DNA from: Campylobacterota bacterium | GTDB lineage: Bacteria > Campylobacterota > Campylobacteria > Campylobacterales > Thiovulaceae | DNA: 64,000 nucleotides | Reading direction: 5' to 3' | Assembly (NCBI GenBank): GCA_030152305.1 | Contig: JASKOM010000006.1 | Location: 11,515 to 75,514 of the forward strand | In this document: one piece after another, positions 1 through 63,085 of the stretch | How the letters are laid out: every line of letters begins with the position of its first letter | How positions within the stretch are numbered: position 1 is the first letter of the stretch | Program-made: the position numbers and the translations under genes | The notes under the pieces: generated by a model | Told to the model about the DNA's origin: nothing | The model's input: only the letters and a program-made list of their open reading frames with translations | Databases searched by the model: none

Positions 1-355
1 CAGCTAAAGCTCTATTTACGACATGTAAAACGATTGGTAATCTCATACCAGAAGCCTGATATAAAGTCTCAACCATAAGAGCATAACCTTGTGATGAGGT
101 AGCAGTTGCAACACGACCACCAGCAGCAGAAGCACCGATACAACCAGACATCGCAGCATGTTCTGATTCGACCATGACATATTCGCCATCAACATAGCCA
201 TTAGCTAAAAATCCTGCATAATTTTCAACAATTGGAGTCGATGGAGTAATTGGATAAGCAGCCACGACATCAACTTGAGCTTGTCTAAGCGAATGAGCAG
301 AAGCTAGATTTCCATCCCAAACTTCAACTTCTTTAAGTTCCATTTTATCAGCCAT
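1..355 (-). CDS. porA: pyruvate:ferredoxin oxidoreductase alpha subunit (5' part; runs off window)
   Basis: Manual translation from ATG at 355: MADKMELKEVEVWDGNLASAHSLRQAQVDVVAAYPITPST...ESEHAAMSGCIGA...ATSSQG. Has the YPITP and ESEH motifs and follows the delta and gamma subunit genes. Confidence 0.93.
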   Translation of the reverse strand, partial: MADKMELKEVEVWDGNLASAHSLRQAQVDVVAAYPITPSTPIVENYAGFLANGYVDGEYVMVESEHAAMSGCIGASAAGGRVATATSSQGYALMVETLYQASGMRLPIVLHVVNRALA

Positions 356-357
356 AA

Positions 358-777
358 TTAATTAGCCTCCTTATCTTTTTTGCTCTCTTTTTTAGGCCAG
401 TTGGCAAGAGCTTCATTTTCAGATTTTTTCTCTTCGAACATTAATAATGATTTTGGATTTGTTGGACAAACATCAACACAAATACCGCAACCTTTGCAAT
501 GGTCATAATCAACACCGACCATTTTTTCATTTCGAGATACGATACTCATATCTGGACAATAGATCCAACAGAATTGACAATCAATACAGAAATCGCGATT
601 AAAAACAGGTTTTTCAACTCGCCAATCAGCAACTGAAGCAGTATATGAATTCGATTGAGAATAAGCTCTATTTTCTGGTAAAGTCGTAGCTAAATTCGAA
701 ACTGTTGTTTCTTTGTTAAACGAAAATAGAATTGCACCAGCATCAAATTCGTTCCAACCTTTGGTTTCTTTTGCCAT
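358..777 (-). CDS. porD: pyruvate:ferredoxin oxidoreductase delta subunit (2x[4Fe-4S])
   Basis: CIDCQFCWIYCP and CKGCGICVDVCP ferredoxin motifs; operon context. Confidence 0.93.
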   Translation of the reverse strand: MAKETKGWNEFDAGAILFSFNKETTVSNLATTLPENRAYSQSNSYTASVADWRVEKPVFNRDFCIDCQFCWIYCPDMSIVSRNEKMVGVDYDHCKGCGICVDVCPTNPKSLLMFEEKKSENEALANWPKKESKKDKEAN

Positions 778-779
778 TA

Positions 780-2360: not shown

Positions 2361-2390
2361 ACCTCATCAACATATTATTTTTGATGAGGT
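2361..2390. terminator. hairpin between convergent genes built from an inverted pair of the 8-mer
   Basis: ACCTCATCAA-catattattt-TTGATGAGGT: perfect 10-bp stem and 10-nt loop between stops at 2355 and 2401. Confidence 0.7.
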
Positions 2391-2400
2391 GATTTATAAA

Positions 2401-3630
2401 TTAATTTTTTATTGAAGTTTCTTCTGAATATTCTTTGAGGAATTGTTTAATATTTTTTGATGCTTGTTTAATTCGGTTTTTGTTTTCGATAAGTGCGATT
2501 CGAACATATTCGTCGCCATATTCACCAAAACCAATTCCCGGACTAACAGCAACTTGTGCTTCGAGAATTAATTTTTTGCTAAATTCTAAACTGCCAAGAT
2601 GTCTCATTTTTTCAGGAATTTTCGCCCAAACAAACATCGAAGCTCGAGGTTTATCCATTTGCCAACCAGCATTATTAAAACTTTTGATTAAAAAATCTCG
2701 TCGATCTTCATATGTTTTTCGAATGTCTTCTACACAACTTTGATCGCCATTTAAAGCAACTGTTGCGGCAATCTGAATTGGAGTAAACATTCCATAATCA
2801 ATCCAGCTTTTTATTTTTTCTAAAGCTCCAATTAATTTACGATTTCCAACGATAAAACCAACTCGCCAACCAGCCATGTTATAACTTTTTGACAAAGTAA
2901 AACTTTCGACAGCGACATCTTTTGCACCTTCAACTTCAAAAATCGAAGGAGTTCTATAACCGTCAAAAACTAAATCAGCATAAGCAATATCACTAATTAT
3001 ATAAAATCGCTCTTTTTTTGCTATTTCAACAAGTCGAACATAAAAATTTGGTGTTACCGTAACAGTTGTTGGATTATGAGGAAAATTGACAACAACATAT
3101 TTTGGTTTTGGAACAGATTCTTTAATAGCTGATTTCAAATCTATAAAAAATTGGTCTTCATCAAGTTCAAAGCTATTATTATATTTCATAGCCATTTTTC
3201 GAACTGTTCCACCTGCCAAAGTAAAAGCATAACTATGAATCGGATAAGTTGGATCTGGAACAATAGCCACATCGCCGACATTTGTAATCGCCTCGATGAG
3301 GTGAGTGTAACCTTCTTTTGATCCCATTGTTGCAACAGCTTCACCGTTTGGATCGATATCAACACCATATCTTCGTTTATACCAATCAGCAATTGCAAGT
3401 CTTAATTTATAAATACCTTTACTTGCTGAATAGCCATAATTTCCACTTTTTTGAGAAGCTTCGATTAATTTCGAAACGATATGTTTTGGTGTATTTCCGT
3501 CTGGATTTCCCATGCTGAAATCGATAACATCTTTGCCATTTCGTCGTTCGCTCATTTTAATTTCATTAACTGCTGCGAAGACATATTTAGGTAATCTAAT
3601 TATTTTTTCAAATTGAATCTCATCAAACAT
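2401..3630 (-). CDS. PLP-dependent class I/II aminotransferase (LL-diaminopimelate aminotransferase / AlaC-like)
   Basis: DFSMGNPD, NFPHNPT, SDIAY, TLSKSYNMAGWRVG motifs. Confidence 0.88.
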   Translation of the reverse strand: MFDEIQFEKIIRLPKYVFAAVNEIKMSERRNGKDVIDFSMGNPDGNTPKHIVSKLIEASQKSGNYGYSASKGIYKLRLAIADWYKRRYGVDIDPNGEAVATMGSKEGYTHLIEAITNVGDVAIVPDPTYPIHSYAFTLAGGTVRKMAMKYNNSFELDEDQFFIDLKSAIKESVPKPKYVVVNFPHNPTTVTVTPNFYVRLVEIAKKERFYIISDIAYADLVFDGYRTPSIFEVEGAKDVAVESFTLSKSYNMAGWRVGFIVGNRKLIGALEKIKSWIDYGMFTPIQIAATVALNGDQSCVEDIRKTYEDRRDFLIKSFNNAGWQMDKPRASMFVWAKIPEKMRHLGSLEFSKKLILEAQVAVSPGIGFGEYGDEYVRIALIENKNRIKQASKNIKQFLKEYSEETSIKN

Positions 3631-3654: not shown

Positions 3655-4221
3655 TTATTTAACTTTTTCCATATACTCGCCTTCAACCGTATTAACACGA
3701 ATACGATCTCCCTCGAGAATATGAAATGGAACTTGAACAACAGCACCAGAATTTAAAGTAGCTGGTTTTCGTCCGCCTTGAGTATCGCCTTTAAAGTTTG
3801 GTGGAGTTTCAACAACTTCTAATTCGATGACCTCATCAACATCAACAGAAATAGGTTTGCCATTATGTAAAACGACATTAACAGTCGAACCGTCGATTAA
3901 CCATTTAACAGTTTCGCCAACTTGTTCTTCAGCTAAACCAATTTGTTCATAAGTCGTTGTATCCATAAATTGAAGCATGTCGCCATCTAAATATAAAAAT
4001 TGCATAGTTTTATATTCTAACATTGGCTCTTGACATTTATCACCAGCATGAAAAGTTTTATCAACAACTCGACCGTTAATTAAACTTTTAATTTTTGTTC
4101 GAACGAAAGCTGCACCTTTACCAGGTTTAACATGTTGATATTCTGTAATTCTATAAGGAATACCATCCATCTCGATTTTTAGACCCTTTTTTAGATCTCC
4201 CATTCCATAGTTTAAAGCCAT
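3655..4221 (-). CDS. efp: translation elongation factor P
   Basis: [20 protein letters not shown] motifs. Confidence 0.97.
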
Positions 4222-5979: not shown

Positions 5980-6013
5980 ACCTCATCGTTAATTTTATAA
6001 ATATTGATGAGGC
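5980..6013. terminator. hairpin between convergent genes built from an inverted pair of the 8-mer (second copy GATGAGGC)
   Basis: ACCTCATC (5980) ... GATGAGGC (6006) followed by TATTTTTTT, between stops at 5961 and 6033. Confidence 0.6.
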
Positions 6014-7120: not shown

Positions 7121-8210
7121 TACTGACCCAACCTTCACTTTCTTCTTCTTCTGTAAATCTTATTTTTATAAAGCCATTTTTTTCATAAATTTTGTCAAAT
7201 ATCTGTTTTTCTTCGACTTGTCTAAATGCTGTTGATGAGGTCATTGGCAAAATTCGAACAACAGATCCATTATTTACACAAACACTTGGTTTTGGCATAA
7301 GCATATCAATAGAAAACCCGACACCGACGATCGAAATTAATAAATTAAAAAAATGTTGATAAAAATAAAATAAAATTATAAAAAACACGGCTACACCGAT
7401 AGCTATACCTAATTTTATTTTAGCGATATGATCGAGTCGTTTTGGTCGTAAATCTTTTGCAGTTGAAACCATATCATCACGAACATCAATCGGAATATCA
7501 ATTTTTGAGAACTGAAAAGTTTCAGTATTAAAATATTTAAAAGTAAAATTATCATAATGTCGAGGAACGACAATATAATAACTTAAATCAGAAAGTTGAA
7601 AACTATCTTTTACGATTCCTTCGATTCCCTGTTTTTTAATATAAGGCTCATCGAATTTAATATTTTTTAATATCGTTTCTTCAGCTTTGATATAAATCGT
7701 TAAGATATTATTTTCTTCATCGAATTTATTAGCAAGTGTTTTATAAATATCAAGATTTTTAGCAAGAATATTCGAAAATTGAGCTGTTTCTGGAAGAGTC
7801 ATAGCAGTTATTTTTTTGCCATTTAACGATGCTTCACTTCTTAATGTTGCATTGCCTTCTTTATATTTTATCGATGCATATAATCGTGGAGTTGTTATTT
7901 TAGTATCTTTTGCAACGAAATAAAATCGATCATAAACAGAAATAACACCGTCTTCATCAACGATTTCTCGTTTAGGTTCTTTATCTTTTGATAATTTTTC
8001 TACTCCGTTGCCACCTGAAAATTTATAAAATAATTTATCATAATTTTCAGATACAACAGTTGTTTTATATTCGATATAAAAAACTTGACCGACATAAACT
8101 CGATCGGGGACTTTATTATAATCGATATATAAATTCTGTCCAGAATTCTCTGATTCGGATCCCCATAAAAAGGGGAAGAGAATTAATAATATGAGATAAA
8201 TTTTTCTCAT
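7098..8210 (-). CDS. exported/membrane protein with C-terminal SH3-like segment
   Basis: Signal peptide, two C-terminal TM helices, VRILP...EGWV tail; lies between purQ and plsC as in Campylobacterota. Confidence 0.7.
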   Translation of the reverse strand: MRKIYLILLILFPFLWGSESENSGQNLYIDYNKVPDRVYVGQVFYIEYKTTVVSENYDKLFYKFSGGNGVEKLSKDKEPKREIVDEDGVISVYDRFYFVAKDTKITTPRLYASIKYKEGNATLRSEASLNGKKITAMTLPETAQFSNILAKNLDIYKTLANKFDEENNILTIYIKAEETILKNIKFDEPYIKKQGIEGIVKDSFQLSDLSYYIVVPRHYDNFTFKYFNTETFQFSKIDIPIDVRDDMVSTAKDLRPKRLDHIAKIKLGIAIGVAVFFIILFYFYQHFFNLLISIVGVGFSIDMLMPKPSVCVNNGSVVRILPMTSSTAFRQVEEKQIFDKIYEKNGFIKIRFTEEEESEGWVSNEDICKN

Positions 8211-8217: not shown

Positions 8218-8895
8218 TTATTTAAAAAAACCCTGCAACATACGAACACCGTCAGATGAGCCAAGAATCGATTCGATAGCTCTTTCAGGATGTGGCATTA
8301 AACCAAAAACATTTCGTTCTCGATTACAAATTCCAGCGATTGCTTCGATTGAACCGTTTGGATTTATTTTATTTCCGTTTTCATCGCAATAAGTCAAAAG
8401 AATTTGATTATTTTCTTTTAAATTATTTAAGCCGACCTCATCGATAAAAAATTTACCTTCAGCATGAGCAATTGGAGCTTTAACGATTTCGCCAACAGTC
8501 ATATCAGACAAAAACAAATTATTATTATTTTCGATTTTTAAATATTGCTGTTTAGAAATAAAATGAAGTCCGTCATTTCGCATCATTGCACCTGGTAATA
8601 AATGAGCTTCAACAAGAATCTGAAAACCGTTACAAATTCCAAGAACATTGCCACCGTTTTTAGCAAATTCAGAAACTTCTTTCATAATTGGAGCAAATCG
8701 TGCGATTGCACCACTTCGTAAATAATCGCCATAACTAAAACCACCAGGAACAACGATTAAATCGATATTTTCAGGTAATTTTTCGTTTTTATGCCAAACT
8801 ATTTCAGTTTCAGCTCCTAATTTTTTAAAAGCATATTCTGTATCAAATTCGCAGTTAGTTCCCGGAAATTGAAGAATCGCGACTCGTTTAGCCAT
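8218..8895 (-). CDS. purQ: phosphoribosylformylglycinamidine synthase glutaminase subunit
   Basis: [32 protein letters not shown]. Confidence 0.97.
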
Positions 8896-9856: not shown

Positions 9857-10006
9857 TAAATTTCTCCATATCAATTTAAGATTATTGTGTCTTGAAATTT
9901 TAACAGTTTCTATTATTAAAAATAGTATTTCGATTATTGCGATAAAAATAAAGAATAATTTTGTTGATGAGGTGATTTTCATGTCGTCTTTGATTAAAAT
10001 TACAAA

Positions 10007-11788: not shown

Positions 11789-13111
11789 TTGATTTTCAAA
11801 GATAAAATTATTAAAAAACCAGAATTACTTTCACCTGCTGGAAATCTCGAAAAATTAAAAATAGCTATTGATTATGGTGCTGATGCCGTTTATGGCGGAG
11901 TTAGTCATTTTTCACTTCGAATTCGAGCGGGAAAAGATTTTACGATGGAAGATTTCACATCTGGAATCGAATATGCTCATGCAAGAAATAAAAAAGTTTA
12001 TGTAACGATAAACGGTTTTCCTTTTAATTCGCAATTAAAATTATTAGAAAATCATATTGCAAAAATGCGAGATTTAAATCCAGATGCTTTTATCGTTTCG
12101 ACTCCAGGGGTTTTATCGATGGCTAGAAAAATCGCTCCAAATATGCCTATTCATCTTTCGACTCAAGCAAATGTTCTTAATTCGCTTGATGCCCGTTTTT
12201 ATTATGATTTAGGTGTATCTCGAATTATTTCAGCCCGAGAAATTTCACTTCGCGACCTCATCGCTATAAAAAATGATATTCCAAAATTAGAAATAGAAAT
12301 ATTTGTTCATGGTTCAATGTGTTTTGCTTACAGTGGAAGATGTTTAATAAGTTCGCTTCAAAATGGTCGTGTGCCAAATCGCGGAAGTTGTGCAAATGAT
12401 TGCCGTTTTCCATATATTTTATATGCCGAAAATCCAGAAACTGGAACTTTGTTAAAACTCGAAGAAGACGAAGGCATTGGAACTTATATTATGAATGCAA
12501 AAGATTTAAATCTTGTTTCATATGTTAAAGAAATCATGGAATCTGGAGCGGTTGATTCGATAAAAATCGAAGGTCGAACAAAAAGTCCATATTACACAGC
12601 GATTACTGCAAAAGCTTATCGTCAAGCTATCGATGATTCAATGGCTGGAAATTTCAAAGCTGAAATTTATCAAGCTGAATTAAACTCGACTCAAAGTCGC
12701 GGTTTTACAGATGGCTATTTAATTCATAAACCTTTTGAAAGAAATGACACTCAAACTACAAATGAAATGATGATTATGGGAACTCATCAAGTTTCTGGAA
12801 TCGTTTTAAAAGATGGTTTTTTCTTTTGTCGTTTTTCGATTTTTTTAGAAGATGAATTAGAAATCGTTTCGCCAAATGATAAAAATATCGATGAGGTCAG
12901 CAATGAAATTGGAGATATATATTTTCGAGATAATTTATGGAGAATTCGTTTTCATAAAATTATTCGAGAAGATGGCACAGAATTAAAAAGTGTTCATAGC
13001 GGAAATCCATATCCGATTAAGCTTCCAGCGAATTTGCCGTTAAATTCATTTTTTAGAGTTCCATTAAATGGACTTCCACCAATGCCTGAAGAAACAAGTT
13101 GCGGTGATTAA
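11789..13111 (+). CDS. peptidase U32 family protein (TrhP-like tRNA hydroxylase)
   Basis: PELLSPAG, GADAVY, HGSMCFAYSGRC, CANDCR, SIKIEGR. Confidence 0.9.
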   Translation: MIFKDKIIKKPELLSPAGNLEKLKIAIDYGADAVYGGVSHFSLRIRAGKDFTMEDFTSGIEYAHARNKKVYVTINGFPFNSQLKLLENHIAKMRDLNPDAFIVSTPGVLSMARKIAPNMPIHLSTQANVLNSLDARFYYDLGVSRIISAREISLRDLIAIKNDIPKLEIEIFVHGSMCFAYSGRCLISSLQNGRVPNRGSCANDCRFPYILYAENPETGTLLKLEEDEGIGTYIMNAKDLNLVSYVKEIMESGAVDSIKIEGRTKSPYYTAITAKAYRQAIDDSMAGNFKAEIYQAELNSTQSRGFTDGYLIHKPFERNDTQTTNEMMIMGTHQVSGIVLKDGFFFCRFSIFLEDELEIVSPNDKNIDEVSNEIGDIYFRDNLWRIRFHKIIREDGTELKSVHSGNPYPIKLPANLPLNSFFRVPLNGLPPMPEETSCGD

Positions 13112-13969: not shown

Positions 13970-14983
13970 TTATTTAATTGAAGCTAAACTTGGTTCTCCG
14001 CCAAATTTTAAAATGGCACTTCCCCAAGTTAATCCACCACCAAAAGCATCTAATAAAACTAAATCACCTGAATTTAATCCGCCTTTTTCCCATAGGTCAT
14101 TCATTGCCATTGGAATTGAAGCTGAAGATGTATTTCCGTATTTATGCACAGTTAAAATAACTTGATCGTCTCGTAATGAGAGAGCATCACCAACGGCTTT
14201 TATTATTCGATAATTAGCTTGATGAGGTATAAAATGTTTAATATCTTCTGATTTAATATTATTTTTTTTGAGAATATCGATTACATCTTTTGTTAATGTT
14301 TTAACAGCTACTTTAAAAGTAGCATTGCCCTGCATTTTCATAAAATGTCTTCGATTTTCAATTGTTTGAATAGAACAAGGTTCAGCTGAACCACCACCTG
14401 GAGTAATTAAATAATCAGAATATGAGCCATCGGCACCAGTATGAACATCGATTATAGCTTTCTCTTTATCGTCGGTTCCGCTAATAATAGCTGCACCTGC
14501 TCCATCGCCAAATAATATACAAGTTGTTCTATCAGTATAATCAATAATTGTGCTTAATTTTTCGGCACCAATTATTAACACATTTTTAAAAGCTCCTGAT
14601 TCAACAAAAGATTTAGCGATATTTAAAGCATAAATAAAACCTGTGCAAGCGGCACTAATATCAAAAGAAGTAACATGATTAAGCCCTAATTTATGAGCTA
14701 TTAAATTTGCAGTTGAAGGCATACAAAAATGATCAGGTGAAATAGTTGCACAAATAACAGCATCTATATCTTTTTTAGTTAAACCAGATCGTTCAATTGC
14801 TATGAGACCAGCTTTAACACCTAAATCACTTGTTACCTCATCGTTATCAGCGATATGTCGTTCTTTGATACCAGTTCGTTGAAAGATCCATTCATCATCA
14901 GTATCAACCATCTTTTCTAAATCATTGTTAGTTAATACTTTCGCAGGTATATATGCACCTATCGATTTAAAAGAGGCATACAC
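13970..14983 (-). CDS. fabH: 3-oxoacyl-ACP synthase III
   Basis: AACTGF, FGDGAGA, PHQAN, GNTSSAS. Confidence 0.97.
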   Translation of the reverse strand: MYASFKSIGAYIPAKVLTNNDLEKMVDTDDEWIFQRTGIKERHIADNDEVTSDLGVKAGLIAIERSGLTKKDIDAVICATISPDHFCMPSTANLIAHKLGLNHVTSFDISAACTGFIYALNIAKSFVESGAFKNVLIIGAEKLSTIIDYTDRTTCILFGDGAGAAIISGTDDKEKAIIDVHTGADGSYSDYLITPGGGSAEPCSIQTIENRRHFMKMQGNATFKVAVKTLTKDVIDILKKNNIKSEDIKHFIPHQANYRIIKAVGDALSLRDDQVILTVHKYGNTSSASIPMAMNDLWEKGGLNSGDLVLLDAFGGGLTWGSAILKFGGEPSLASIK

Positions 14984-36488: not shown

Positions 36489-36508
36489 TTAATCTACCTC
36501 ATCAATTA

Positions 36509-45934: not shown

Positions 45935-46757
45935 AAATCATATCTATTCTCTTGCTATTGGTAGATTTAACGGTTTTCATCTTGGACATCAAACACTTTT
46001 TCGTAACCTCATCGGTAACGGTGGCATCATGATGATCGAACGAGAAAGTAAAGAATATATCTTACCTCGAGAATATTCTTACAGATTTATTGACCTGCCT
46101 ATTTTTAAATATAATTTAAATAGTGTTCGAGAATTAAGTGGTGAAGAATTTGTTAAAAAGATTTCCGAAGAGTTTCCAAATTTAAAAAGAATTGTTGTTG
46201 GTTATGATTTTCGTTTTGCCAAAAATCGCGATTCATCAGCTCTTGATTTATCTAAATTATCTAATTGTGAAGTTTTTATCGTTGATGAGGTTCTTATTGA
46301 AGGCATTTCTGTTCATTCCGCTGAAATCGTAAAAAGAATTCGATGTGGCGAAATCGAAATAGCTAATAAACTTCTTGGACGAAATTATTTAATTATTGGA
46401 CATCAAATAAAAGGTCAGGGTCTTGGCAATAAATCACTTTTGCCTACGATTAATATAAATATTGGTTCTTTTACTAAACCTATGGCTGGTTCCTATTTTT
46501 CAACAACGATTATTAATAATTATCGTTTTTCATCTGTAACTTTTGTTGGTGTTCGTAGCACCGATGGAATTGAAACTGTTGAAACTCATTTGATCGATTT
46601 TAATTATGACGAAGAAAAAAATATAAAATTTAATTTTAATGATGAGGTCCAAATAGAATTTATAAAATTTATAAGAGCAAGAGAATTATTTAATAATTTA
46701 GAAGATTTAAAAAAATCGATAATTGGAGATATAAAATTTGCAAGAAATTATTTATAG
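45903..46757 (+). CDS. ribF: bifunctional riboflavin kinase/FAD synthetase
   Basis: IGRFNGFHLGHQ, VVGYDFRF, GQGLG...PTIN, ETHL. Confidence 0.92.
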   Translation: MISYLNSTHIKNHIYSLAIGRFNGFHLGHQTLFRNLIGNGGIMMIERESKEYILPREYSYRFIDLPIFKYNLNSVRELSGEEFVKKISEEFPNLKRIVVGYDFRFAKNRDSSALDLSKLSNCEVFIVDEVLIEGISVHSAEIVKRIRCGEIEIANKLLGRNYLIIGHQIKGQGLGNKSLLPTININIGSFTKPMAGSYFSTTIINNYRFSSVTFVGVRSTDGIETVETHLIDFNYDEEKNIKFNFNDEVQIEFIKFIRARELFNNLEDLKKSIIGDIKFARNYL

Positions 46758-50900: not shown

Positions 50901-51239
50901 GATGTTACGAACATATTAACTGGTATGATGAAACCAATCGAAGAAGAAAAACATACTGGACAAGCCGAAATTCGACAAATATTTAAAGTTCGCGATGGTG
51001 TTGTTGCTGGTTGTGTTGTTGTTGATGGTGCAATTCAAAAAGGTATTCTCGCTCGTGTTATTCGTAATGGTGTTGTTTTAGGAAATACAAATGTTGAAAG
51101 TCTAAAACGATTCAAAGATGAGGTCATGGAAGTTAAACGAGGTTTTGAATGTGGAATTTTATTAAAGAATTTTGATAATATCGCTGAAGGTGATGTTATT
51201 GAAACTTATGAAAAAGTTACTCGACAGGCTAAATTTTAA
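47952..51239 (+). CDS. infB: translation initiation factor IF-2 with expanded N-terminal repeat region
   Basis: [17 protein letters not shown]; C-terminal [19 protein letters not shown]. Confidence 0.97.
48177..48851 (+). repeat. 99-bp (33-aa) in-frame tandem repeat, about 6.8 copies
   Basis: CCAAATGGCGAACG recurs at 48210, 48309, 48408, 48507, 48606, 48705, 48804; unit DR(TA/TP/PQ)(Q/L)D(S/P)[26 protein letters not shown]. Confidence 0.97.
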
Positions 51240-52481: not shown

Positions 52482-53416
52482 TGGACTCGCCACATATTCC
52501 TGTTCTTCTCGATGAGGTCGTAAAAGAGTTCAGTTCAACTGAATTTGATAAAGTTTTTTTTATTGATGCAACGATCGGATACGGCGGACATTCAAAAGCT
52601 ATTTTGGAAAGTTCGCAAAATATCCACCTCATCGGCATAGATCGAGATTCTGAAGCTGTTGAATTTTCAAAAAAAAGATTAAATAGTTTCGGTTCTCGAA
52701 TAAATATTTTACACGGAACTTTTTCAGAAAAAATAAACGAAGCAATAAAATTAGCTGGAGATAATAAAATTATCGGAATCTTAGCTGATATTGGAGTTTC
52801 GAGTTTGCAACTTGATAAAATTGACCGCGGTTTTAGTTTTGATTCGCCAAATTTAGATATGCGAATGAATCAAAATGATGAATTAACGGCTTATAAAATT
52901 ATAAATAATTATTCGCAATATAAATTAGAACAGATTTTTAAAGATTTTGGTGAAATTAGAAATAGTAAAAAAATTGCAACTGCGATTATAAATAATCGTC
53001 CTATTGAAAGCGGTTTAGAATTGGCTAATTTGATAGAAAAAACTGAAGGTCGTTGGAGTGGAACTCATCCAGCAACTCAAATTTTTCAGGCTATTCGAAT
53101 TGAAGTAAATGGCGAATTGAATCAATTAGAAAATTTATTAAAAGAAATTGAATTATTTGCTAGAAATAATAAATTAAACGGTTCGAAAATTGCAATAATT
53201 ACTTTTCATTCGCTTGAAGACCGAATTGTGAAAGATAAATTTCGAGATTGGGCAAATAGCTGTATCTGTCCGCCTGAAGTAATGAAATGTAGCTGTGGCG
53301 ATAATCACGATATTGGCGAGATATTAACAAAAAAGCCAATTATCGCAACAGAAAAAGAAATATCAAAAAATAGACGAAGTCGCAGTGCAAAATTAAGACT
53401 CTTTCAAATTAATTAA
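52481..53416 (+). CDS. rsmH: 16S rRNA m4C1402 methyltransferase
   Basis: HIPVLL, DATIGYGGHS, DIGVSSLQLD, FHSLEDR, RSRSAKLR. Confidence 0.96.
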   Translation: MDSPHIPVLLDEVVKEFSSTEFDKVFFIDATIGYGGHSKAILESSQNIHLIGIDRDSEAVEFSKKRLNSFGSRINILHGTFSEKINEAIKLAGDNKIIGILADIGVSSLQLDKIDRGFSFDSPNLDMRMNQNDELTAYKIINNYSQYKLEQIFKDFGEIRNSKKIATAIINNRPIESGLELANLIEKTEGRWSGTHPATQIFQAIRIEVNGELNQLENLLKEIELFARNNKLNGSKIAIITFHSLEDRIVKDKFRDWANSCICPPEVMKCSCGDNHDIGEILTKKPIIATEKEISKNRRSRSAKLRLFQIN

Positions 53417-55104: not shown

Positions 55105-55995
55105 ATGTTTGGTTTTTTCGAACGAGGCTTTAAAAAGACTCTTGAAGTTATAAAAGCACTTGATAAATCGCTTATGGTCGAAGCGATTCATCATATTAAA
55201 AAAGATAGATTAGAAGAAATATTAATCGAAAGCGATGTTACTTATGATTTAATCGAAGAGATTTTAGAGAATTTGCCTGATGAGGTATCTCGAGAAGATT
55301 TAGAACCACGATTATTAAAATGTTTTGAAACACAAAAAAAAGACTGGATTCACAAAAGACCTGTTGTTCAATTAATTATTGGTGTCAATGGTGCAGGAAA
55401 AACGACAACGATTGCAAAACTTGCATCAAAATATCGCAAACAGGGCAAACGAGTTATTTTAGGAGCTTCTGATACTTTTAGAGCGGCCGCTATTGAACAG
55501 CTTAGATTATGGGCTGATCGTCTTGATATTCCAGTCATTTTTTCAAAACAGGGACACGATCCGTCAGGTGTTACTTTTGATGCAATTAGATCAGGAGTTG
55601 CGAGAAACATGGATTATATAATAATCGATACGGCTGGTCGTTTGCATAATCAAAGCAATTTATCAGAAGAGCTGAAAAAAATCGTTCGAGTTGCTGATAA
55701 AGCTCATGCTGGATCACCTCATCAAAAAATTTTAATTTTAGATGGAACTCAAGGAACTTCGGCAATTGTTCAAGCTGAAAAATTTAACGAAATGATAGGA
55801 ATTGACGGAATAATTATCACAAAATTAGATGGCACAGCAAAAGGTGGAGCGATTTTTTCGATAGCAGAAGCTTTAAAAGTTCCAATTTTATATATTGGAA
55901 TTGGAGAAAAACCCGACGATTTAATCGAGTTTGTTCCAAAAGAATTTGTCAAAGGTCTTTTAGATAAATTATATAAAGGCGAATCGAAATTATAA
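55105..55995 (+). CDS. ftsY: signal recognition particle receptor
   Basis: GVNGAGKTTT, DTFRAAA, DTAGR, TKLDGTAKGG. Confidence 0.96.
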   Translation: MFGFFERGFKKTLEVIKALDKSLMVEAIHHIKKDRLEEILIESDVTYDLIEEILENLPDEVSREDLEPRLLKCFETQKKDWIHKRPVVQLIIGVNGAGKTTTIAKLASKYRKQGKRVILGASDTFRAAAIEQLRLWADRLDIPVIFSKQGHDPSGVTFDAIRSGVARNMDYIIIDTAGRLHNQSNLSEELKKIVRVADKAHAGSPHQKILILDGTQGTSAIVQAEKFNEMIGIDGIIITKLDGTAKGGAIFSIAEALKVPILYIGIGEKPDDLIEFVPKEFVKGLLDKLYKGESKL

Positions 55996-56871
55996 AATTT
56001 TTACAAGTCCAGAACTTATTATAATAGCTTTTAAGCGAATTCCATCGGTTGTTTCAACCTGAATAGAATCATTGAATCCTCCATTTTGGAGGGCTTTCAC
56101 TTCAGTTTCCATATAAACATTTCCATCACGAATAAAACCTTTTAACATTTGTCCTTTTAATACGACACTATTTTTTTCAATATTTCGATTAAAAAGTTCG
56201 CGATCTTTTGGAATATAGCCTTTTGCAACAATATCATTTAAATCTTGAACTGATAAATAATCTCCCCGAAATCGTTCAAATTTCATTTTTTGAACAACCG
56301 TATTTGATGAGGTCAAAGCTTCACCTTTTTGAATATTCGTTGAGCTTTTTACAATTTCAATATATGCTTCGATATTAAATTTAAAATGAATTCTATTGCC
56401 ATCCGAGTCTTCAATATAAAATAAGCCATTTGATTTTTGAATATCACTGTCATTAATTACAATTTCATATTTATCAGGCAATGAATCAATATTATTTTTT
56501 GGAGTAACAATAACATTGACTATATCCATATCTGGATATTTTTTTTGAAACTCTTTCTGTAAAGAATCGGCGATACAATTAATACACAAAGTTGCAGGAA
56601 CATATGTAAATTTAATTTGACGAATATTTGTTTTATCAACAGATATATTATTTTTATTAAATTGTTCTATTAAATCCATAGTTGAAATATAAAACTTTGT
56701 TGAATCGTGTTCAAAATTACCAATTAAAAAATTATTTTTTTTTGAAATTGATTTATATATATCTTTTGCATAAATAGATTTGTTATTAACGATATATTCG
56801 TCATTTAATATTAAAGATAATGCAAATGTTGGAAACACAATTAATAATGTAGAAATAGATATTTTTTTCAA
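55990..56871 (-). CDS. flgA: flagellar basal body P-ring formation chaperone
   Basis: Signal peptide, SAF-like domain, VLKG...VKALQNG...IQV C-terminus. Confidence 0.75.
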   Translation of the reverse strand: MKKISISTLLIVFPTFALSLILNDEYIVNNKSIYAKDIYKSISKKNNFLIGNFEHDSTKFYISTMDLIEQFNKNNISVDKTNIRQIKFTYVPATLCINCIADSLQKEFQKKYPDMDIVNVIVTPKNNIDSLPDKYEIVINDSDIQKSNGLFYIEDSDGNRIHFKFNIEAYIEIVKSSTNIQKGEALTSSNTVVQKMKFERFRGDYLSVQDLNDIVAKGYIPKDRELFNRNIEKNSVVLKGQMLKGFIRDGNVYMETEVKALQNGGFNDSIQVETTDGIRLKAIIISSGLVKIL

Positions 56872-59717: not shown

Positions 59718-60039
59718 GACTTTTAAACGGTTTTAATAAATAATCGTTTGCACCTAATTGATGACTATTTAAAACTCGATCAAGAGTTGAATGAGCAGTC
59801 ATCATAATTATTTTTGTTCTTTTATTTTGCATTCGAACAGTTTTTAAAAAATCCATACCGTCCATTTGAGGCATCATAATATCTAATAAAACGATATCAA
59901 AAGTTCCAGCTTTAACTTCTTCAAGTGCATTCGCAGGATTCGAAAAAACTCTAACTTCAAAGCCTTTTTCTCTACCGATTAATCTTTCCAACATCGAAAG
60001 AATCTCAAGTTCATTATCGACAATTGCTATTTTTGCCAT
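59680..60039 (-). CDS. single-domain response regulator
   Basis: IVDNE, LDIMMPQMDG, MMTA, LLKPF. Confidence 0.9.
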   Translation of the reverse strand: MAKIAIVDNELEILSMLERLIGREKGFEVRVFSNPANALEEVKAGTFDIVLLDIMMPQMDGMDFLKTVRMQNKRTKIIMMTAHSTLDRVLNSHQLGANDYLLKPFKSLAKVLEKIKAFA

Positions 60040-60103
60040 TGTTTCTCCTTAATTTAATTCGAATGAAATTATATTCCTATTTCTGAATAACTTATTAAAG
60101 ATA

Positions 60104-63085
60104 TTATTTATATAACCAAATACCTGCATTTTTTGGAACTCGATTAAATACTTCAAAATGAGCATTAGCGATTTTTCGTCTAATTTCTGGATTCGAACTA
60201 TATCCTTTAAAAGTTCCATCTGAAAAAATCCAAACAACTTTAAACCCTTCAAAAATCGAAATATCATTTATTTCTGCAAGGGTGCCCAATAAAGACCAAC
60301 CTTTATCTAGACTATTTAACATTTGTTTGTTAACTCTAATGCCATATTTCGAAGGATCTTCTTGTATTTTTAATGTCAATTTTTGCATTTCACTTTGCAA
60401 TTCAGACATACTCATTAAATTAAATTCTTTCGGATTACTAATAACTTTTTCACGACCTTCGATATATGCATTATCAACATTTTTTTTGTGAGTTAAATTA
60501 TATTCATCAAGATGAGTTAAAATATGTTCTTGAATTTCAACAATAATTTCTTCATAATTTTTAAATGTTGTTAAATTAAATTCTTGTGGATTTTCCAGAA
60601 TATATTTTTTGGCATTTTCAATAGTTTCTTTTGAATTTGACTTATCGCTATTCATTTCTTCTAAATTATTTAATATATAATCTTTAACTTCATTAATTCC
60701 ATTATTAAATTGAATCATTCTAGACATATTATATTCGTTTGCTTCTGTTTCTTCTGTTTTGAGTTCTTCAAGTAATTTACTATAATTTTCGTTTAAATCT
60801 TTATAATCCCGAGTTATATTTTGATCTAAATCAGACCCGATAGCATCGCTATATTTTGTTGCTTTTTGATTTTCTGCAATATTTACAACACCTTTACTAA
60901 TACTTTCAAGATATGCTCTACTTTTTTTATCTTTTAATAATTCTCTAAATTCATCTTGAGAAAGTTCATAAAGATCAACTGGAAAAGTTTTTTCAGCAAT
61001 TTTGCCTTCTGTATCAACTATTTTTACTTTTATATCTTTTATTCCAGCTTCATGAAAACGATGAGTTGTTGCATTATTTTGCAATTCTTCGTAGCCGTTA
61101 TTTTCATCAAAATTTATAAAATATTTATCAACGGGATTTTTACCATTTCTAGTTACGATAATAAAATACATTTCTTTATAAATTTTATGATCCCCTTCGA
61201 TTATTAAATCACTGATGTCAGCATACAACGAATTTCTCAATTGATGTTCTTTCTGGCGATTTTCTATTGAATCAAAAGTTTCATCAGCTTCTTTCTTTTG
61301 ACGAATCAATGAACTTCCAACAGCTTGGTCATAAGCTTTTGAAACATTATAAATATCCATACAATTTTTATTCATATCTGGAGTCAATCCAACTTTTATT
61401 AATGCTGAATTATTTTCAAAAATTTTATTCATATCAGCTGATTTTGTTAAATTTGTTAAAGGTAAATTACCAGCTTTTTCTAATTTATAAAATTGATAAT
61501 TATAAATATTACTTAAATTAAGAAAATTATTTTCTAATTGAACATCACCAGTCATAAAAATTTCTTCAGAAACGATATCAGGACCAGTTTCATTTTTGAT
61601 TATATTATTTATAATTGCACCTTTGCCATAAAGAGACATTCCTTTGCCTCTATTATTTAAAAGTAATGAATTAAATAATTTTACATTGCCAAAAATTGCA
61701 CCACCTTGATTGGCTTGATTTTGCATAAATAACGATGAGGTAATATCTAATTTAGCTGTATGAATTCCATGAATTGCACCACCGCGATTGCTAATATTTT
61801 TGGCAAGATTTGAATTTGTTACTGTAACTGCTACACCGTCGATGGCACCGCCAACATTTGAAGAAGCATTTTCGCAAAGAGCTGTGTATCTAATTTTTAA
61901 ATCATAACCTTTAACTGCTCCACCACTAACAACTGCATAGTTTTTATATAAATATGAATTCGTTAATGATAATGATTTTGATAAAATCGCTCCACCTTTT
62001 TCACTTTTATTTTTTATAAAAGAACTACCAATAATTGAAGTCATAACAGTTTCTATTGCTCCACCAGTTTTCGAACTTGAATTTGCTGTGAAATTGCTAT
62101 CTTTTACAAGTCCGTCAATACTTTTAATTGCTCCGCCACTATAGATTGCTGAATTATTATTAAATATTGATTCTCTAATTTGAACTTTTTCTCCAAATAA
62201 ACCACCGCCATATTTTGCACTATTTTTATCAAATTTTGAACCAATAATATTAATATCACGACTATATAAACCACCGCCGTAGTTATCGGCACTGTTATTA
62301 ATGATACTTGAATCGATGATTTTTGCACTTTCTGTTTTTATGGCTCCGCCATCATATTTTGAACTATTATTAGAAATAATGCAATTTGTGATTTTAACTT
62401 TGCTTACTCCGTATAACATTCCGCCGTAGCTACTATTATTATATGAAAGATTAGAATCCTTAAGAAGGGCTGTTTTGATGCTATAAATACCACCGCCATG
62501 TCTTTGAGCTTTATTGTAAGAAATATTTGAAAGCTTAACGATTGTATTTCCGCTACTGAAAATAGCACCTCCAACCCCTCGTAAAGATTCATTTTTACTG
62601 ATTGTTGATTCGTTGATAAATGTTGAACCTAAATTATAAACTCCTGCACCGTCATATTGAGATTTATTGTATATAACGGCAATATTATTTAAATTTAATT
62701 CGCCTAGATTTTCAACTCTTAAACCACCACCATTAATTTTACTGTGTCCATTTTGAACAGTTACTCTAGACACTGTAATAGATATTTTATGTTGAGAATT
62801 TGATAGAAAAAGTGTTGAAGATAATCCGTTGCCATCGATTATAACTTCGTTTCGTTTTGCTCCAGTTTCACCTTGAATTATTAAATCAAAATTTTCATCT
62901 GATTGATAGGAGAAGATTTGTCTTGATGATGCGACATATCTTCCCCGTTTTAAAATAATTTTGTCATCTTCACTGTTATTCTCCGCACTTCTTAAAGCTA
63001 AATAAAACTCATCACTATTTGAGACAGTAAAATCTTTGCCTAATAATAATGACGAAGCAACGAGAGATAAAAGTATGTGTCGCAA
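60104..63085 (-). CDS. secreted beta-helix (Pmp-like GGAI repeat) protein with PKD-like domain and 65-aa C-terminal domain
   Basis: Signal peptide; many N-x-A-xx-GGAI/GGGL repeats; THRFHEAGIKDIKVKIVD; helical region; terminal GWSLLG...GIWLYK. Confidence 0.75.
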   Translation of the reverse strand: MRHILLSLVASSLLLGKDFTVSNSDEFYLALRSAENNSEDDKIILKRGRYVASSRQIFSYQSDENFDLIIQGETGAKRNEVIIDGNGLSSTLFLSNSQHKISITVSRVTVQNGHSKINGGGLRVENLGELNLNNIAVIYNKSQYDGAGVYNLGSTFINESTISKNESLRGVGGAIFSSGNTIVKLSNISYNKAQRHGGGIYSIKTALLKDSNLSYNNSSYGGMLYGVSKVKITNCIISNNSSKYDGGAIKTESAKIIDSSIINNSADNYGGGLYSRDINIIGSKFDKNSAKYGGGLFGEKVQIRESIFNNNSAIYSGGAIKSIDGLVKDSNFTANSSSKTGGAIETVMTSIIGSSFIKNKSEKGGAILSKSLSLTNSYLYKNYAVVSGGAVKGYDLKIRYTALCENASSNVGGAIDGVAVTVTNSNLAKNISNRGGAIHGIHTAKLDITSSLFMQNQANQGGAIFGNVKLFNSLLLNNRGKGMSLYGKGAIINNIIKNETGPDIVSEEIFMTGDVQLENNFLNLSNIYNYQFYKLEKAGNLPLTNLTKSADMNKIFENNSALIKVGLTPDMNKNCMDIYNVSKAYDQAVGSSLIRQKKEADETFDSIENRQKEHQLRNSLYADISDLIIEGDHKIYKEMYFIIVTRNGKNPVDKYFINFDENNGYEELQNNATTHRFHEAGIKDIKVKIVDTEGKIAEKTFPVDLYELSQDEFRELLKDKKSRAYLESISKGVVNIAENQKATKYSDAIGSDLDQNITRDYKDLNENYSKLLEELKTEETEANEYNMSRMIQFNNGINEVKDYILNNLEEMNSDKSNSKETIENAKKYILENPQEFNLTTFKNYEEIIVEIQEHILTHLDEYNLTHKKNVDNAYIEGREKVISNPKEFNLMSMSELQSEMQKLTLKIQEDPSKYGIRVNKQMLNSLDKGWSLLGTLAEINDISIFEGFKVVWIFSDGTFKGYSSNPEIRRKIANAHFEVFNRVPKNAGIWLYK

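Follow-up and report, generated by a model that had tools for sequence, protein, structure and literature searches.

An over-represented octamer with strand-specific spacing in a family of Campylobacterales: a putative self-DNA tag

The octamer and its copies in the window

The window, the whole 64-kb stretch of DNA analysed, belongs to a 2.01-Mb genome of the order Campylobacterales (G000), for which five other members of the family (G001-G005) are available. It contains comEC, the sole match of the genome to the Pfam family Competence; ComEC is the inner-membrane DNA channel in natural transformation. An earlier note had also placed a ComEA-like gene here, for which the domain match is marginal; three clearer ComEA-like genes are located elsewhere in the genome. 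The competence set, examined in G000 alone, includes eight prepilin-type proteins, two secretins, ComEC, four HHH_3 proteins, DprA, two PilB/GspE-like ATPases and one PilT-like ATPase. Such a set is common across the order and so does not single out the family. The number of ComEA-type genes is not family-specific either, which counts against reading the octamer described below as an uptake tag.

The window contains the exact octamer GATGAGGT 42 times, with 24 copies forward and 18 reverse (Table 1), where at least 41 (23 and 18) had been claimed; the outermost copies, at 93-100 and 61734-61741, agree with the span given before. In 100 shuffles that preserved dinucleotide composition, the mean was 0.88 copies (maximum 3), close to the chance value of about 0.8 in the earlier note. 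The base on the 5' side was C or T in 38 of the 42 copies, A in 4 and never G, and the pyrimidine bias counted previously (37 of 41) was thus reproduced. By ORF reading, the contexts were D-E-V in sense (19), T-S-S (8), x-L-I (6) and P-H-Q/R (4, not 3 as claimed) in antisense, and non-coding (5). Among the genes named as carriers, efp, a purQ-like GATase, fabH, acnB, rsmH/MraW and ftsY were recovered with Pfam, and infB has one copy inside; for fabZ, the single ORF tried (17126-17596) gave no Pfam match.

Table 1. Copies of GATGAGGT and two genes of the window
Feature	Position	Strand	Context
copy	93..100	+	intergenic
copy, left arm of hairpin pair ACCTCATC...GATGAGGT	2361..2368	-	between convergent ORFs 1567-2355(+) and 2401-3630(-)
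copy, right arm, with 2361..2368	2383..2390	+	intergenic pair
copy	3295..3302	+	antisense in ORF 2401-3630(-), H-L-I
copy	3830..3837	-	sense in efp (3655-4221, -), D-E-V
copy	5980..5987	-	intergenic
copy	7234..7241	+	antisense in ORF 7098-8210(-), T-S-S
copy	8435..8442	-	sense in GATase_5 (purQ-like) ORF 8218-8895(-), D-E-V
copy	9966..9973	+	antisense in ORF 8888-9982(-), T-S-S
copy	12255..12262	-	antisense in ORF 11789-13111(+), D-L-I
copy	12890..12897	+	sense in ORF 11789-13111(+), D-E-V
copy	14221..14228	+	antisense in fabH (13970-14983, -), P-H-Q
copy	14835..14842	-	sense in fabH (13970-14983, -), D-E-V
copy	17523..17530	-	sense in ORF 17126-17596(-), D-E-V
copy	19340..19347	+	antisense in ORF 18933-19379(-), P-H-R
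copy	21057..21064	-	antisense in ORF 20590-22038(+), P-H-R
copy	21331..21338	+	sense in ORF 20590-22038(+), D-E-V
copy	22589..22596	-	sense in ORF 22039-23349(-), D-E-V
233-aa protein, marginal HHH_3 (ComEA-type) domain	27416..28117	-	29.6 bits against a cut-off of 27
copy	27552..27559	-	sense in HHH_3 (ComEA-like) ORF 27416-28117(-), D-E-V
copy	28086..28093	+	antisense in HHH_3 (ComEA-like) ORF 27416-28117(-), T-S-S
copy	28255..28262	-	sense in ORF 28140-28529(-), D-E-V
copy	30759..30766	+	antisense in ORF 29979-31049(-), Y-L-I
copy	32028..32035	-	sense in ORF 31499-32683(-), D-E-V
copy	34081..34088	-	antisense in acnB (33939-36488, +), D-L-I; site also in G004
copy	35175..35182	+	sense in acnB, D-E-V; also in G001; D-E-I in other four family members
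copy	36030..36037	+	sense in acnB, D-E-V; also in G004 and G005
copy	36496..36503	-	intergenic, acnB/comEC spacer
comEC	36560..37855	-	Pfam Competence, 72.9 bits
copy	37545..37552	+	antisense in comEC, T-S-S
copy	38389..38396	-	sense in GGDEF/PAS ORF 37803-40511(-), D-E-V
copy	41679..41686	+	antisense in ORF 41420-42553(-), T-S-S
copy	42441..42448	+	antisense in ORF 41420-42553(-), T-S-S; same orientation as 41679..41686, 762 bp away (few such)
copy	43322..43329	-	sense in ORF 43084-43725(-), D-E-V
copy	46006..46013	-	antisense in ORF 45903-46757(+), N-L-I
copy	46284..46291	+	sense in ORF 45903-46757(+), D-E-V
copy	46641..46648	+	sense in ORF 45903-46757(+), D-E-V; 357 bp from 46284..46291, rare same-orientation pair
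copy	51117..51124	+	sense in infB (47952-51239, +), D-E-V
copy	52511..52518	+	sense in rsmH/MraW (52481-53416, +), D-E-V
copy	52626..52633	-	antisense in rsmH/MraW, H-L-I
copy	55279..55286	+	sense in ftsY (55105-55995, +), D-E-V
copy	55716..55723	-	antisense in ftsY, P-H-Q
copy	56306..56313	+	antisense in ORF 55990-56871(-), T-S-S
copy	61734..61741	+	antisense in PMP-repeat ORF 60104-63085(-), T-S-S

Selection of the exact word in genes and genomes

In the whole genome, GATGAGGT was the top-ranked 8-mer, with 1,205 copies against 37.7 expected from an order-3 Markov model (32-fold); under the same model the 9-mer CGATGAGGT was found 743 times against 10.4 (71-fold). The density of (Y)GATGAGGT is approximately one per 1.7 kb. 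The words ranked next all overlap GATGAGGT, and the G000 ranking showed no independent 8-mer of comparable enrichment. A single-base change at any of the eight positions led to the background level: one-mismatch variants were not enriched but mildly depleted (628 against 955 expected), as seen for GATGAAGT (64 against 127). This lack of enrichment counts against an uptake tag.

The codons needed for the word are minority codons, as had been supposed: GAG makes up 9.7% of Glu, ACC 4.1% of Thr and CTC 3.8% of Leu codons in G000. ORFs of this genome carry 552 sense and 501 antisense copies, whereas 30 within-gene synonymous shuffles over the whole genome gave means of 55 and 30, in line with the claim that protein sequence alone cannot explain the word. 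D-E-V tripeptides were spelled with GATGAGGT in 524 of 578 cases (91%), against 8.3% expected. In addition, D-E-V and T-S-S were 3.6-fold and 1.9-fold in excess over a dipeptide model, and in acnB the word needed amino-acid changes from D-E-I or D-E-F to D-E-V. Selection thus acts on the precise DNA word, at the expense of codon usage and even of amino-acid sequence.

All six family genomes, from four genera, are rich in GATGAGGT (743-1,565 copies each), compared with 45-222 copies in 35 genomes from 25 other families of the order. It was the top 8-mer in samples of G001-G004, with flanks that vary among genomes; dialects of this kind had been anticipated. Depletion in mobile DNA had also been expected, and the longest stretch of G000 free of the word (16.8 kb) is an island between two PDDEXK_2 transposase genes with Bro-N/Rha and tail-fibre-like genes; this phage-like island is the one clearly mobile segment on which the comparison rests. 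Further long gaps are found in the ribosomal-protein, rpoB-tuf and ATP-synthase operons and in a polysaccharide locus. When G000 and G001 were compared, 93 sites were shared, 101 were specific to G000 and 68 to G001, and 25 lay opposite gaps; control 8-column windows were identical in 20.7%. Non-shared sites had a mode of three base differences. The turnover between species thus exceeds that predicted from point mutation alone.

Orientation and spacing of the copies

The absence of strand polarity described earlier was confirmed for the genome, with 600 forward and 605 reverse copies and no link between orientation and GC skew in G000. In the closed genome G001, the strands differed by at most 3 copies in 21 of 21 20-kb samples around the chromosome. 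Neither clustering nor replichore polarity was observed in these two genomes; therefore, a chromosome-organising element of the parS, matS or KOPS kind, as the earlier note had also considered, is unsupported.

The new finding is the near-absence of same-orientation copies within 500 bp. Only 14 such pairs were present in G000 against 180 expected (ratio 0.08), whereas opposite-orientation pairs showed no depletion (ratio about 1). Ratios for 23 control 8-mers of similar copy number were 1.06-1.97. The exclusion reaches approximately 1 kb and was seen again in G001, G003 and G004; in G002 the sites are too few for a judgement (4 pairs against 7 expected). As for the overall arrangement in G000, spacing on each strand is even (median 2.8 kb), counts per 20 kb are under-dispersed (variance/mean 0.49), and neighbouring copies tend to alternate (844 of 1,192 opposite in orientation). 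Pairs of the form ACCTCATC...GATGAGGT at 250-750 bp were 1.5-fold enriched in G000; this excess was not seen in G001 or G003.

The hairpin pairing claimed before was also found. All 57 pairs within 60 bp were inverted, and of 32 intergenic ACCTCATC...GATGAGGT pairs, 17 were in convergent, 14 in tandem and 1 in divergent spacers, although just 16% of the spacers overall are of the convergent type. Close inverted pairs accordingly form hairpins at gene 3' ends; the pair at 2361..2390 has a 10-bp stem (-13.1 kcal/mol, z -3.8).

Possible roles of the octamer

The extreme enrichment, both orientations, multiple reading frames and gene-end hairpins are shared with neisserial DUS and Pasteurellaceae USS, and (Y)GATGAGGT is best explained as their putative functional analogue. 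The reading of the earlier note is thus partly supported: the sequence-level traits expected of such a signal are all present, including family-wide retention with flank dialects, absence from an island and an accompanying set of competence genes, but the word departs from the Neisseria model in its same-orientation exclusion and its unenriched one-mismatch variants. USS and DUS genomes have many near-miss copies. A USS-rich comparator also showed the same-orientation rule at 30-250 bp (2 pairs against 18.9 expected; opposite orientation, 20 against 18.9), but there it stops at 250 bp. In a DUS-rich comparator, the ratios at 100-250 and 250-500 bp were 0.79 and 0.72 for the same and 0.77 and 0.74 for the opposite orientation. 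This lack of an orientation effect in the closest textbook system counts against the analogy. The surface receptor ComP binds double-stranded DNA regardless of orientation; with a ComP-like receptor, opposite-orientation neighbours should be redundant too, which is not the case for GATGAGGT. For HIP1, another hyper-abundant octamer, published work reports a boost to transformation, a once-proposed role in nucleoid structure and, from the authors of one study, a proposed Chi-like component. It also describes decades without an agreed function, which calls for caution in deducing function from abundance.

The strongest alternative is a Chi-like signal, which an AddAB-type helicase-nuclease would recognise on one strand during end resection. 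At the word, the enzyme would change from degrading DNA to loading RecA, and self DNA would be marked; incoming or broken DNA would be protected, each orientation serving ends approached from one side. Such directional reading accounts for redundancy of same-orientation copies only, and the pairs at 250-750 bp might shield the enclosed segment from both ends, although their excess is missing in G001 and G003. GATGAGGT is G-rich, purine-rich and without C, like known Chi sequences, the genome has an AddB-like ORF (785 aa) with a PDDEXK_1 domain, and the HIP1 proposal is a precedent. Nevertheless, this role seems unlikely. To our knowledge, all Chi sequences characterised so far have a leading-strand skew, in contrast to the lack of polarity here; Chi is enriched only few-fold under weak per-site selection, far below the enrichment and the codon and amino-acid override of GATGAGGT; and gene-end hairpin pairs are a DUS/USS trait. 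RecC was searched for and not found, and the word is restricted to one family although AddAB is present throughout the order. A little more doubtful is a role as the site of an enzyme that modifies or nicks DNA, retained for a reason other than uptake. A methyl mark or nick on one strand could, for example, serve to tell the strands apart in repair or to control a restriction system, and regularly spaced sites would be required on each strand separately. In favour of this reading, the family is very rich in restriction-modification genes of asymmetric specificity (Eco57I/MmeI-like, Type ISP-like and Type III Mod in G000). All eight positions are as sharp as in a restriction site, and a one-strand mark would account for the strand-specific spacing. 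However, such sites are usually avoided or neutral in hosts, not amplified 30-fold; the enzymes usually specify 5-7 bases rather than eight contiguous ones, and second-order selection for repair could not override codons at 91% of D-E-V sites. For the Type ISP-like methyltransferase-specificity protein L264, orthologues with 58-69% identity are present in G002, G004 and G005, and outgroup matches are limited to paralogues of 30-35% in 4 of 35 genomes. In G001, however, six stops interrupt the orthologue, and in G003 (81% complete) none was found, although GATGAGGT has its full density in both genomes. No N6_N4 methyltransferase common to all six genomes was found.

The under-dispersion and alternating orientation, and the similar grounds once given for HIP1, would also suit a protein of the chromosome, nucleoid-organising or other, whose binding sites must be evenly spaced and alternate in orientation, for example to allow bridging or looping, with no link to gene transfer. 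We consider this improbable: regional clustering and polarity are lacking, a structural site is not expected to be absent from a mobile island and highly expressed core operons, and half of the sites turn over within the genus, for which drive fits better than fixed architecture. A very limited search found no family-specific DNA-binding candidate. It is most improbable that the word is a functionless by-product of family-specific biased mutation or repair of the very-short-patch kind. Conversion of near-misses would give the mild depletion of one-mismatch variants, but the three-base mode argues against single conversions, and the amino-acid changes, the exclusion over hundreds of bases, the independence of opposite copies and the free island are left unexplained.

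We give about an even chance that (Y)GATGAGGT is a transformation-linked self-DNA tag with strand- or direction-specific action. Transformation with biased transmission might have amplified it to about one copy per 1.7 kb, if word-bearing DNA is better taken up, protected or recombined, so as to cause molecular drive of new copies. The word might be read by a competence protein of the pilin-like or ComEA-like type, by a factor that handles the single strand as it enters, or by a receptor that recognises a methyl mark on the word, and this reading would be strand- or direction-specific. A further same-orientation copy within approximately 0.5-1.5 kb would then add nothing and would not be driven, whereas an opposite-orientation copy would be driven independently. 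As a result, each strand would acquire its own evenly spaced set.

Abundance, sequence and coding of the word

The 8-mer GATGAGGT (the word; ACCTCATC on the opposite strand) is present in the window in 42 exact copies, 24 forward and 18 reverse, which agrees within one copy with the count in the earlier note. In 100 dinucleotide-preserving shuffles of the window, its mean number was 0.88 and the maximum was 3. In the source genome G000 (2.01 Mb, 13 contigs, 29% GC), of which the window is C10:11515-75514, the word was counted 1,205 times (600 forward, 605 reverse), whereas an order-3 Markov model predicts 37.7; the enrichment noticed in the window thus holds genome-wide under this model. The word is the most deviant 8-mer in G000, and the words ranked below it overlap it without exception, so that no independent 8-mer rivals it. 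The 9-mer CGATGAGGT occurs 743 times against 10.4 expected.

All eight core positions are invariant in the logo of all G000 sites, and any single change within them brings the frequency to background. The 24 one-mismatch words sum to 628 against 955 expected, a slight depletion. At position -1, C accounts for 62% of the sites, T for 29%, A for 7% and G for 2%, in line with the preceding pyrimidine and rare G reported for the window; apart from a weak C at +8, the flanks are featureless.

Among 1,809 crude ORF calls, which cover 90% of G000, 524 sites encode D-E-V in frame, 28 lie in another sense frame, and the antisense sites are distributed over the three frames as 199, 184 and 118; the remaining 152 lie between genes or at gene margins. 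The use of several frames described for the window is therefore seen genome-wide. Within-gene synonymous shuffles (n=30) yielded means of 55 for sense and 30 for antisense copies, in comparison with 552 and 501 observed. This shortfall (85 against 1,053 in ORFs), together with the coding of D-E-V, rejects a codon or peptide artefact: 524 of the 578 D-E-V tripeptides (91%) are written as GATGAGGT, whereas 8.3% is expected from GAT and GAG usage. In the proteome, D-E-V is 3.6-fold and T-S-S, an antisense-frame tripeptide, 1.9-fold above the dipeptide expectation, and the controls D-E-I, D-E-L and D-K-V are near 1. At orthologous positions of acnB, some members of the host family have D-E-I or D-E-F and others have D-E-V with the word. 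The word ends in GAGGT; an mRNA or Shine-Dalgarno-like role was rejected, since sense and antisense sites are equally common.

Orientation is balanced throughout G000, bin by bin at 20 kb, and the GC-skew classes do not differ in this respect (183 forward and 176 reverse in G-rich bins; 200 and 218 in C-rich bins). In the closed genome of the congener G001, a circle of 1.72 Mb, the strand difference was at most 3 copies in 21 of 21 spaced 20-kb samples. At about 6 + 6 copies per 20 kb, the density is even across the 13 contigs of G000 and also in G001, and the copies per 20 kb are under-dispersed in G000 (variance/mean 0.49). Neither the replichore skew nor the ori/ter clustering that the earlier note had proposed to look for was thus found in G000 or G001. 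A chromosome-polar motif of the Chi or KOPS type was rejected on the G000 bins and the 21 samples from G001, and a site of the KOPS, parS or matS type is not supported, with neither polarity towards dif nor clustering at ori or ter.

The longest stretch free of the word is a 16.8-kb island (L081), with 0 copies against about 10 expected. Two nearly identical PDDEXK_2 transposase genes (276 aa) flank it, and it carries genes for a Bro-N/Rha regulator, a YadA-head and Peptidase_S74 (tail-fibre-like) protein and a 1,082-aa Ig-domain protein (adhesin). As the sole phage-like island examined, it shows the depletion that had been anticipated for such elements. A polysaccharide locus is a further gap in variable DNA, and the gaps in constrained operons are those of the ribosomal proteins with SecY, rpoB-tuf-tRNAs and ATP synthase. 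In viral contigs, the extended hairpin described below gave 58 matches, which look like chance: the best 20 of the 58 lie at 41-69% GC, and 27 of the 58 consist of the seeding pair alone. They are uninformative on phages of the host family.

Features with their coordinates
Feature	Location	Description
Hairpin pair	window 2361-2390	Between convergent ORFs; 10-bp stem, -13.1 kcal/mol, z -3.8
902-aa ORF adjoining comEC	window 37803-40511(-)	dCache/PAS/GGDEF sensor; rejected as infB
infB	window 47952-51239	
Word-free island (L081)	G000:C6:26563-43326	
Tandem ComEA-like genes (L103)	G000:C5:45159-46063	123 and 141 aa, between an RNase Y-like gene and gyrB; GATGAGGT hairpin pair about 100 bp upstream of the first gene
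Type ISP-like gene (L264)	G000:C13:43117-45681	
L264 orthologue	G001:C1:1622195-1624780	Six in-frame stops
CRISPR-like arrays	G000:C5:132398-133026; C6:about 210300; C13; C4:about 14200	
USS-rich sample (L285-L296)	G530:C1:1-220000 and C2:1-20000	

Orientation and spacing of neighbouring copies

Of 1,192 pairs of adjacent sites in G000, 844 are oppositely oriented (z = 14); among the 239 pairs that are at most 500 bp apart, 228 are. In the full pair correlation, 14 same-orientation pairs closer than 500 bp were found against 180 expected. The same-orientation ratio is 0.35 at 500-750 bp and about 0.7 up to 1.5 kb, and reaches 1 from 2 kb, whereas that of opposite pairs is at least 1 at every distance. 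Gaps on the same strand have a median of 2,769 bp (CV 0.70), and 1.2% of them are below 500 bp, compared with 14% for a Poisson process. Chance creation alone is estimated to give about 11 pairs, close to the 14 that remain, so a second copy pointing the same way within 500 bp seems to get no drive.

The rule is seen again in the relatives, where same-orientation pairs within 500 bp number 7 against 32 (G001), 14 against 47.5 (G004), 15 against 32 (G003) and 4 against 7 expected (G002, whose sites are too few to be telling), with opposite pairs at expectation. Twenty-three control 8-mers with 900-1,500 copies gave same-orientation ratios of 1.06-1.97, in contrast to 0.08 for GATGAGGT. This clustering of the controls, together with the lack of exclusion for the longer DUS, rejects direct-repeat instability as the cause. 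Coding constraint was also rejected, because sense-sense and antisense-antisense doubles are both depleted within genes. The two orientations would appear to be functionally independent, as the spacing suggests, with one copy serving about 0.5-1.5 kb.

The same analysis was applied to two comparators, which were found by sampling the orders of two named loci for the DUS and USS cores. The DUS-rich genome G320 is closed and has 3,841 DUS copies in 2.6 Mb, of which one 200-kb sample was used; the USS-rich genome G530 has 1,455 USS copies in 1.8 Mb, and its single 240-kb sample contains 203 copies of the 9-base USS core.

Observed/expected numbers of site pairs by relative orientation and distance
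Genome	Orientation	30-100 bp	100-250 bp	250-500 bp
G000, whole genome	same	0.00	0.11	0.09
G000, whole genome	opposite	1.42	1.00	1.17
G320, DUS-rich	same	1.01	0.79	0.72
G320, DUS-rich	opposite	1.64	0.77	0.74
G530, USS-rich	same	0.00 (0 vs 6.0)	0.16 (2 vs 12.9)	0.70
G530, USS-rich	opposite	1.83	0.70	0.89

In G320, only a mild depletion at 100-500 bp, blind to orientation, is seen. In G530, exclusion is specific to orientation and extends only to about 250 bp: at 30-250 bp, same-orientation pairs number 2 and opposite pairs 20, against 18.9 expected for each. As far as single samples go, one bona fide uptake-signal system thus offers a precedent for this kind of exclusion rule, which is much stronger and longer-ranged in the host family than in the G530 sample. 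In the available portions of the literature on spacing by orientation, no mention of same-orientation exclusion of USS was found; Figure S9 of PMC7811141 may bear on the orientation of USS pairs.

At the shortest distances the copies are paired. All 57 neighbour pairs within 60 bp in G000 are inverted, with a peak at 20-40 bp; 41 are ACCTCATC...GATGAGGT and 16 are the converse. Of the former, 32 are intergenic: 17 lie between convergent, 14 between tandem and 1 between divergent genes, although convergent spacers make up 16% of all spacers, and the 3' end of a gene adjoins 31 of the 32. The hairpin loops are AT-rich and 4-26 nt long. These hairpins look like putative bidirectional terminators, in the way described for pairs of USS and DUS (PMC7811141, section 19; bioRxiv 10.1101/2025.10.24.684340). 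An Rfam scan and a terminator scan of the window did not flag the hairpin there, whose 10-nt loop is above the limit of the terminator scan.

At 250-750 bp, ACCTCATC...GATGAGGT pairs are 1.5-fold enriched in G000 and the converse arrangement is not; this excess gives loose divergent dyads of sites, 2-4 kb apart. It is also seen in G004 and is absent from G001 and G003.

Distribution in the order and gene content of the host

The six genomes below, from four genera, are every host-family genome in the collection searched. Strand balance holds in each of them, and GATGAGGT is again the top 8-mer in G001-G004 (samples of 130-420 kb). In 35 genomes from 25 other families of the order, 45-222 copies were found. 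The 80 named acnB loci related to the acnB of the window belong to Campylobacterales MAGs, have at most 73% identity and include none that is motif-rich.

Copies of the word and of its reversed control in the host family
Genome	GATGAGGT	Reversed control word
G000	1,205	27
G001	993	42
G002	743	123
G003	1,314	135
G004	1,565	204
G005	1,406	62

The flanks differ among the members, with T at +8 in G001 and G004, G at +9 in G003, and a base at -1 that is predominantly T in G004 and predominantly C in G005; dialects, which the earlier note had suggested seeking in related genomes, are thus present. When G000 was aligned to 344 kb of G001 (77% identity), 93 sites were common, 101 were specific to G000 and 68 to G001, and 25 lay opposite gaps. 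Random 8-column windows of this alignment are identical in 20.7%. Compared with this control, the common sites indicate that sites are kept 2.3- to 2.8-fold above background while about half turn over. The non-shared sites differ most often by 3 bases, against 1-2 under neutral divergence. New DUS are likewise too divergent for single point mutations (Treangen et al., PMC2397512).

Two single-contig genomes of another family of the order, G014 and G035, have 54 and 52 copies, a background number. These are almost perfectly replichore-skewed, forward in one half of the chromosome and reverse in the other, opposite to the host family. Other iterated words were also encountered in the order. GATTCCA occurs 56 times in 22.6 kb of the acnB locus of Helicobacteraceae bacterium HGM09004 (L026; 32 forward, 24 reverse), with A or G at -1 in 87% and without same-orientation exclusion. 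It is also raised, by mononucleotide expectation only, in four Helicobacter-type loci (L045, L034, L051 and L032), and may be another lineage-specific hyper-abundant word. Two palindromes were noticed in a 22.5-kb Sulfurimonadaceae MAG locus (L002), CGACGTCG with 24 copies and CGTCGACG with 18, and a Helicobacter sp. TUL locus (L062) contains AGATTCTA (30 copies) and AGAATCTA (24 copies), which are strand-skewed.

G000 encodes eight prepilin-type proteins, including a T2SSG-type pseudopilin and a neighbouring pilin-like gene, two secretins, two PilB/GspE-type ATPases, one PilT-like ATPase and DprA. Its one ComEC is located in the window, as the earlier note stated; the ComEA-like gene claimed there is only a marginal HHH_3 match, in addition to which the genome has three clear ComEA-like HHH_3 proteins, two of them tandem. 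Pfam confirms the genes named in the window with the exception of fabZ. The same competence gene set is common across the order and is therefore not discriminating. In the search for a receptor, the copy number of ComEA-type (HHH_3) proteins was not family-specific, and no protein emerged as a ComP-type receptor. One AddB-like ORF with PDDEXK_1 is present in G000, where RecC was not found.

Restriction-modification genes with asymmetric specificity abound in the host family. L264 encodes a Type ISP-like protein that consists of coupler, methyltransferase and specificity parts and lacks nuclease and motor, and has orthologues of 58-69% identity in G002, G004 and G005. A second Type ISP-like methyltransferase, L262, is not family-specific.

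Three further repeats are present in these genomes. A CRISPR-like repeat containing CCCTTATAGGGA recurs every 65-73 bp in G000, 27 copies in total. A REP-like element, ATCCCGAA-loop-TTCGGGATGAC, often tandem, occupies 58 places in G000, 55 of them intergenic and 6 on C10. A GC-rich 18-mer repeat of another kind is found in G001, at 34-36 copies in 420 kb.

Comparison with known signals and interpretation

All of the genomic hallmarks of DUS and USS that were tested are seen with GATGAGGT. Like USS, it is a short non-palindromic word with hundreds to thousands of copies at a similar density (0.6 per kb in G000; 0.85 per kb in the G530 sample), balanced strands and several reading frames. The over-represented tripeptides (PMC2817400), the close inverted pairs at gene ends (PMC7811141, section 19) and the relatively even spacing (PMC7811141) are also shared with USS, as is same-orientation exclusion, with a reach of about 1-1.5 kb in the host family against about 250 bp in the USS-rich sample. 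The word differs from USS in sequence, phylum and GC setting, and in lacking an AT-rich flanking consensus and enriched one-mismatch variants. With DUS it shares family-wide conservation with dialect-like flank differences (PMC3630211), inverted pairs as terminators (here putative), spacing at the scale of recombination tracts and new sites beyond single point mutations (PMC2397512), and absence from mobile elements. It is shorter and sharper than the 10-12 bases of DUS, shows an orientation-specific exclusion that DUS-rich G320 does not, and forms hairpins with AT-rich loops of 4-26 nt, whereas a DUS pair is defined by spacings of at most 21 nt (PMC2397512).

Two other systems are comparable in part. 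HIP1 (GCGATCGC) of cyanobacteria is also a hyper-abundant octamer conserved across a large clade and found in all frames. It is 15- to 300-fold over-represented; its function was long unknown, and more recently it has been reported to increase natural transformation, with a role in uptake recognition proposed for it (PMC5861425; bioRxiv 2024.09.10.611283; PMC13756078). HIP1 is palindromic, hence without orientation, whereas GATGAGGT differs from its own reverse complement; HIP1 is recognised by two known orphan methyltransferases, while the many methyltransferases of the host include none assigned to GATGAGGT. Within the same order, the CtsM mark of C. jejuni (methylated RAATTY) serves self-DNA discrimination at the first uptake step (PMC8468864). 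RAATTY is a short, degenerate palindrome, frequent by chance and dependent on methylation, in contrast to the amplified exact 8-mer of the host family.

The exact 8-mer in 91% of D-E-V sites, together with the amino-acid changes, seems to leave only biased transmission as a strong enough force, and the known process of this kind is sequence-biased natural transformation. GATGAGGT may well be a transformation-linked tag, a reading that we hold with about even confidence. The classical signals have a dedicated receptor in ComP of Neisseria and a predicted one, ComN, in Pasteurellaceae. A double-strand receptor blind to orientation predicts redundancy both ways, as in DUS-rich G320; hence we infer a reading of one strand or one coupled to direction. 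The word may be recognised on the entering single strand; alternatively, a step at the word might fix which strand is transported and in which direction. The copies of GATGAGGT on each strand would then form a separate lattice, spaced at a median of 2.8 kb and with exclusion over about 1 kb. More tentatively, and with a probability well short of even, this would be a strand-specific or directional uptake-type tag, the first known outside Neisseriaceae, Pasteurellaceae and possibly the HIP1 case, with a mechanism unlike double-strand binding by a surface pilin.

A signal that attenuates a nuclease in the manner of Chi would equally yield the same-orientation rule, and Chi (RecBCD/AddAB) is likewise a non-palindromic, G-rich word of 8 bases that is read directionally on a single strand. 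Such a signal fits poorly with the absent replication-strand skew, with an enrichment an order of magnitude higher than that of Chi and with the pairing into terminator-like hairpins, and we consider it unlikely. A modification or nick site serving another purpose is a rather improbable explanation. L264, being nearly family-restricted, is a weak lead to it, but the gene is broken in G001 and no orthologue was found in G003. As with HIP1 or RAATTY, a methyl mark on GATGAGGT could be part of the tag or of a Chi-like mechanism. We regard a structural binding site as improbable and a neutral repair bias as very improbable indeed, and leave the rest to something else.

In a survey of 2025 (bioRxiv 10.1101/2025.10.24.684340), sequence-specific uptake signals (DUES) are ascribed to two families, Neisseriaceae and Pasteurellaceae, and a paper of 2026 proposes HIP1 as a cyanobacterial uptake recognition sequence, a third case. 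The literature searched contained no report of an uptake sequence for Campylobacterota, Epsilonproteobacteria, Campylobacterales, Sulfurimonas, Sulfurovum or Arcobacter, and among the matches listed for the letters of GATGAGGT only primer lists appeared. What is new in the host family is the phylum, the word and the orientation rule, the uptake function being putative.

The orientation rule offers a purely genomic read-out of how such a signal is used, in which the orientations are not interchangeable and the length scale is about 1 kb; a short-range version of it is hinted at in USS-rich G530 by the same analysis. If the tag for transformation is true, it would represent a third or fourth independent origin, in another phylum, so that such tags would evolve repeatedly, and it would provide a fresh system for the discovery of receptors. 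Addition of the word to donor DNA might then render this uncultured or little-studied family genetically tractable.
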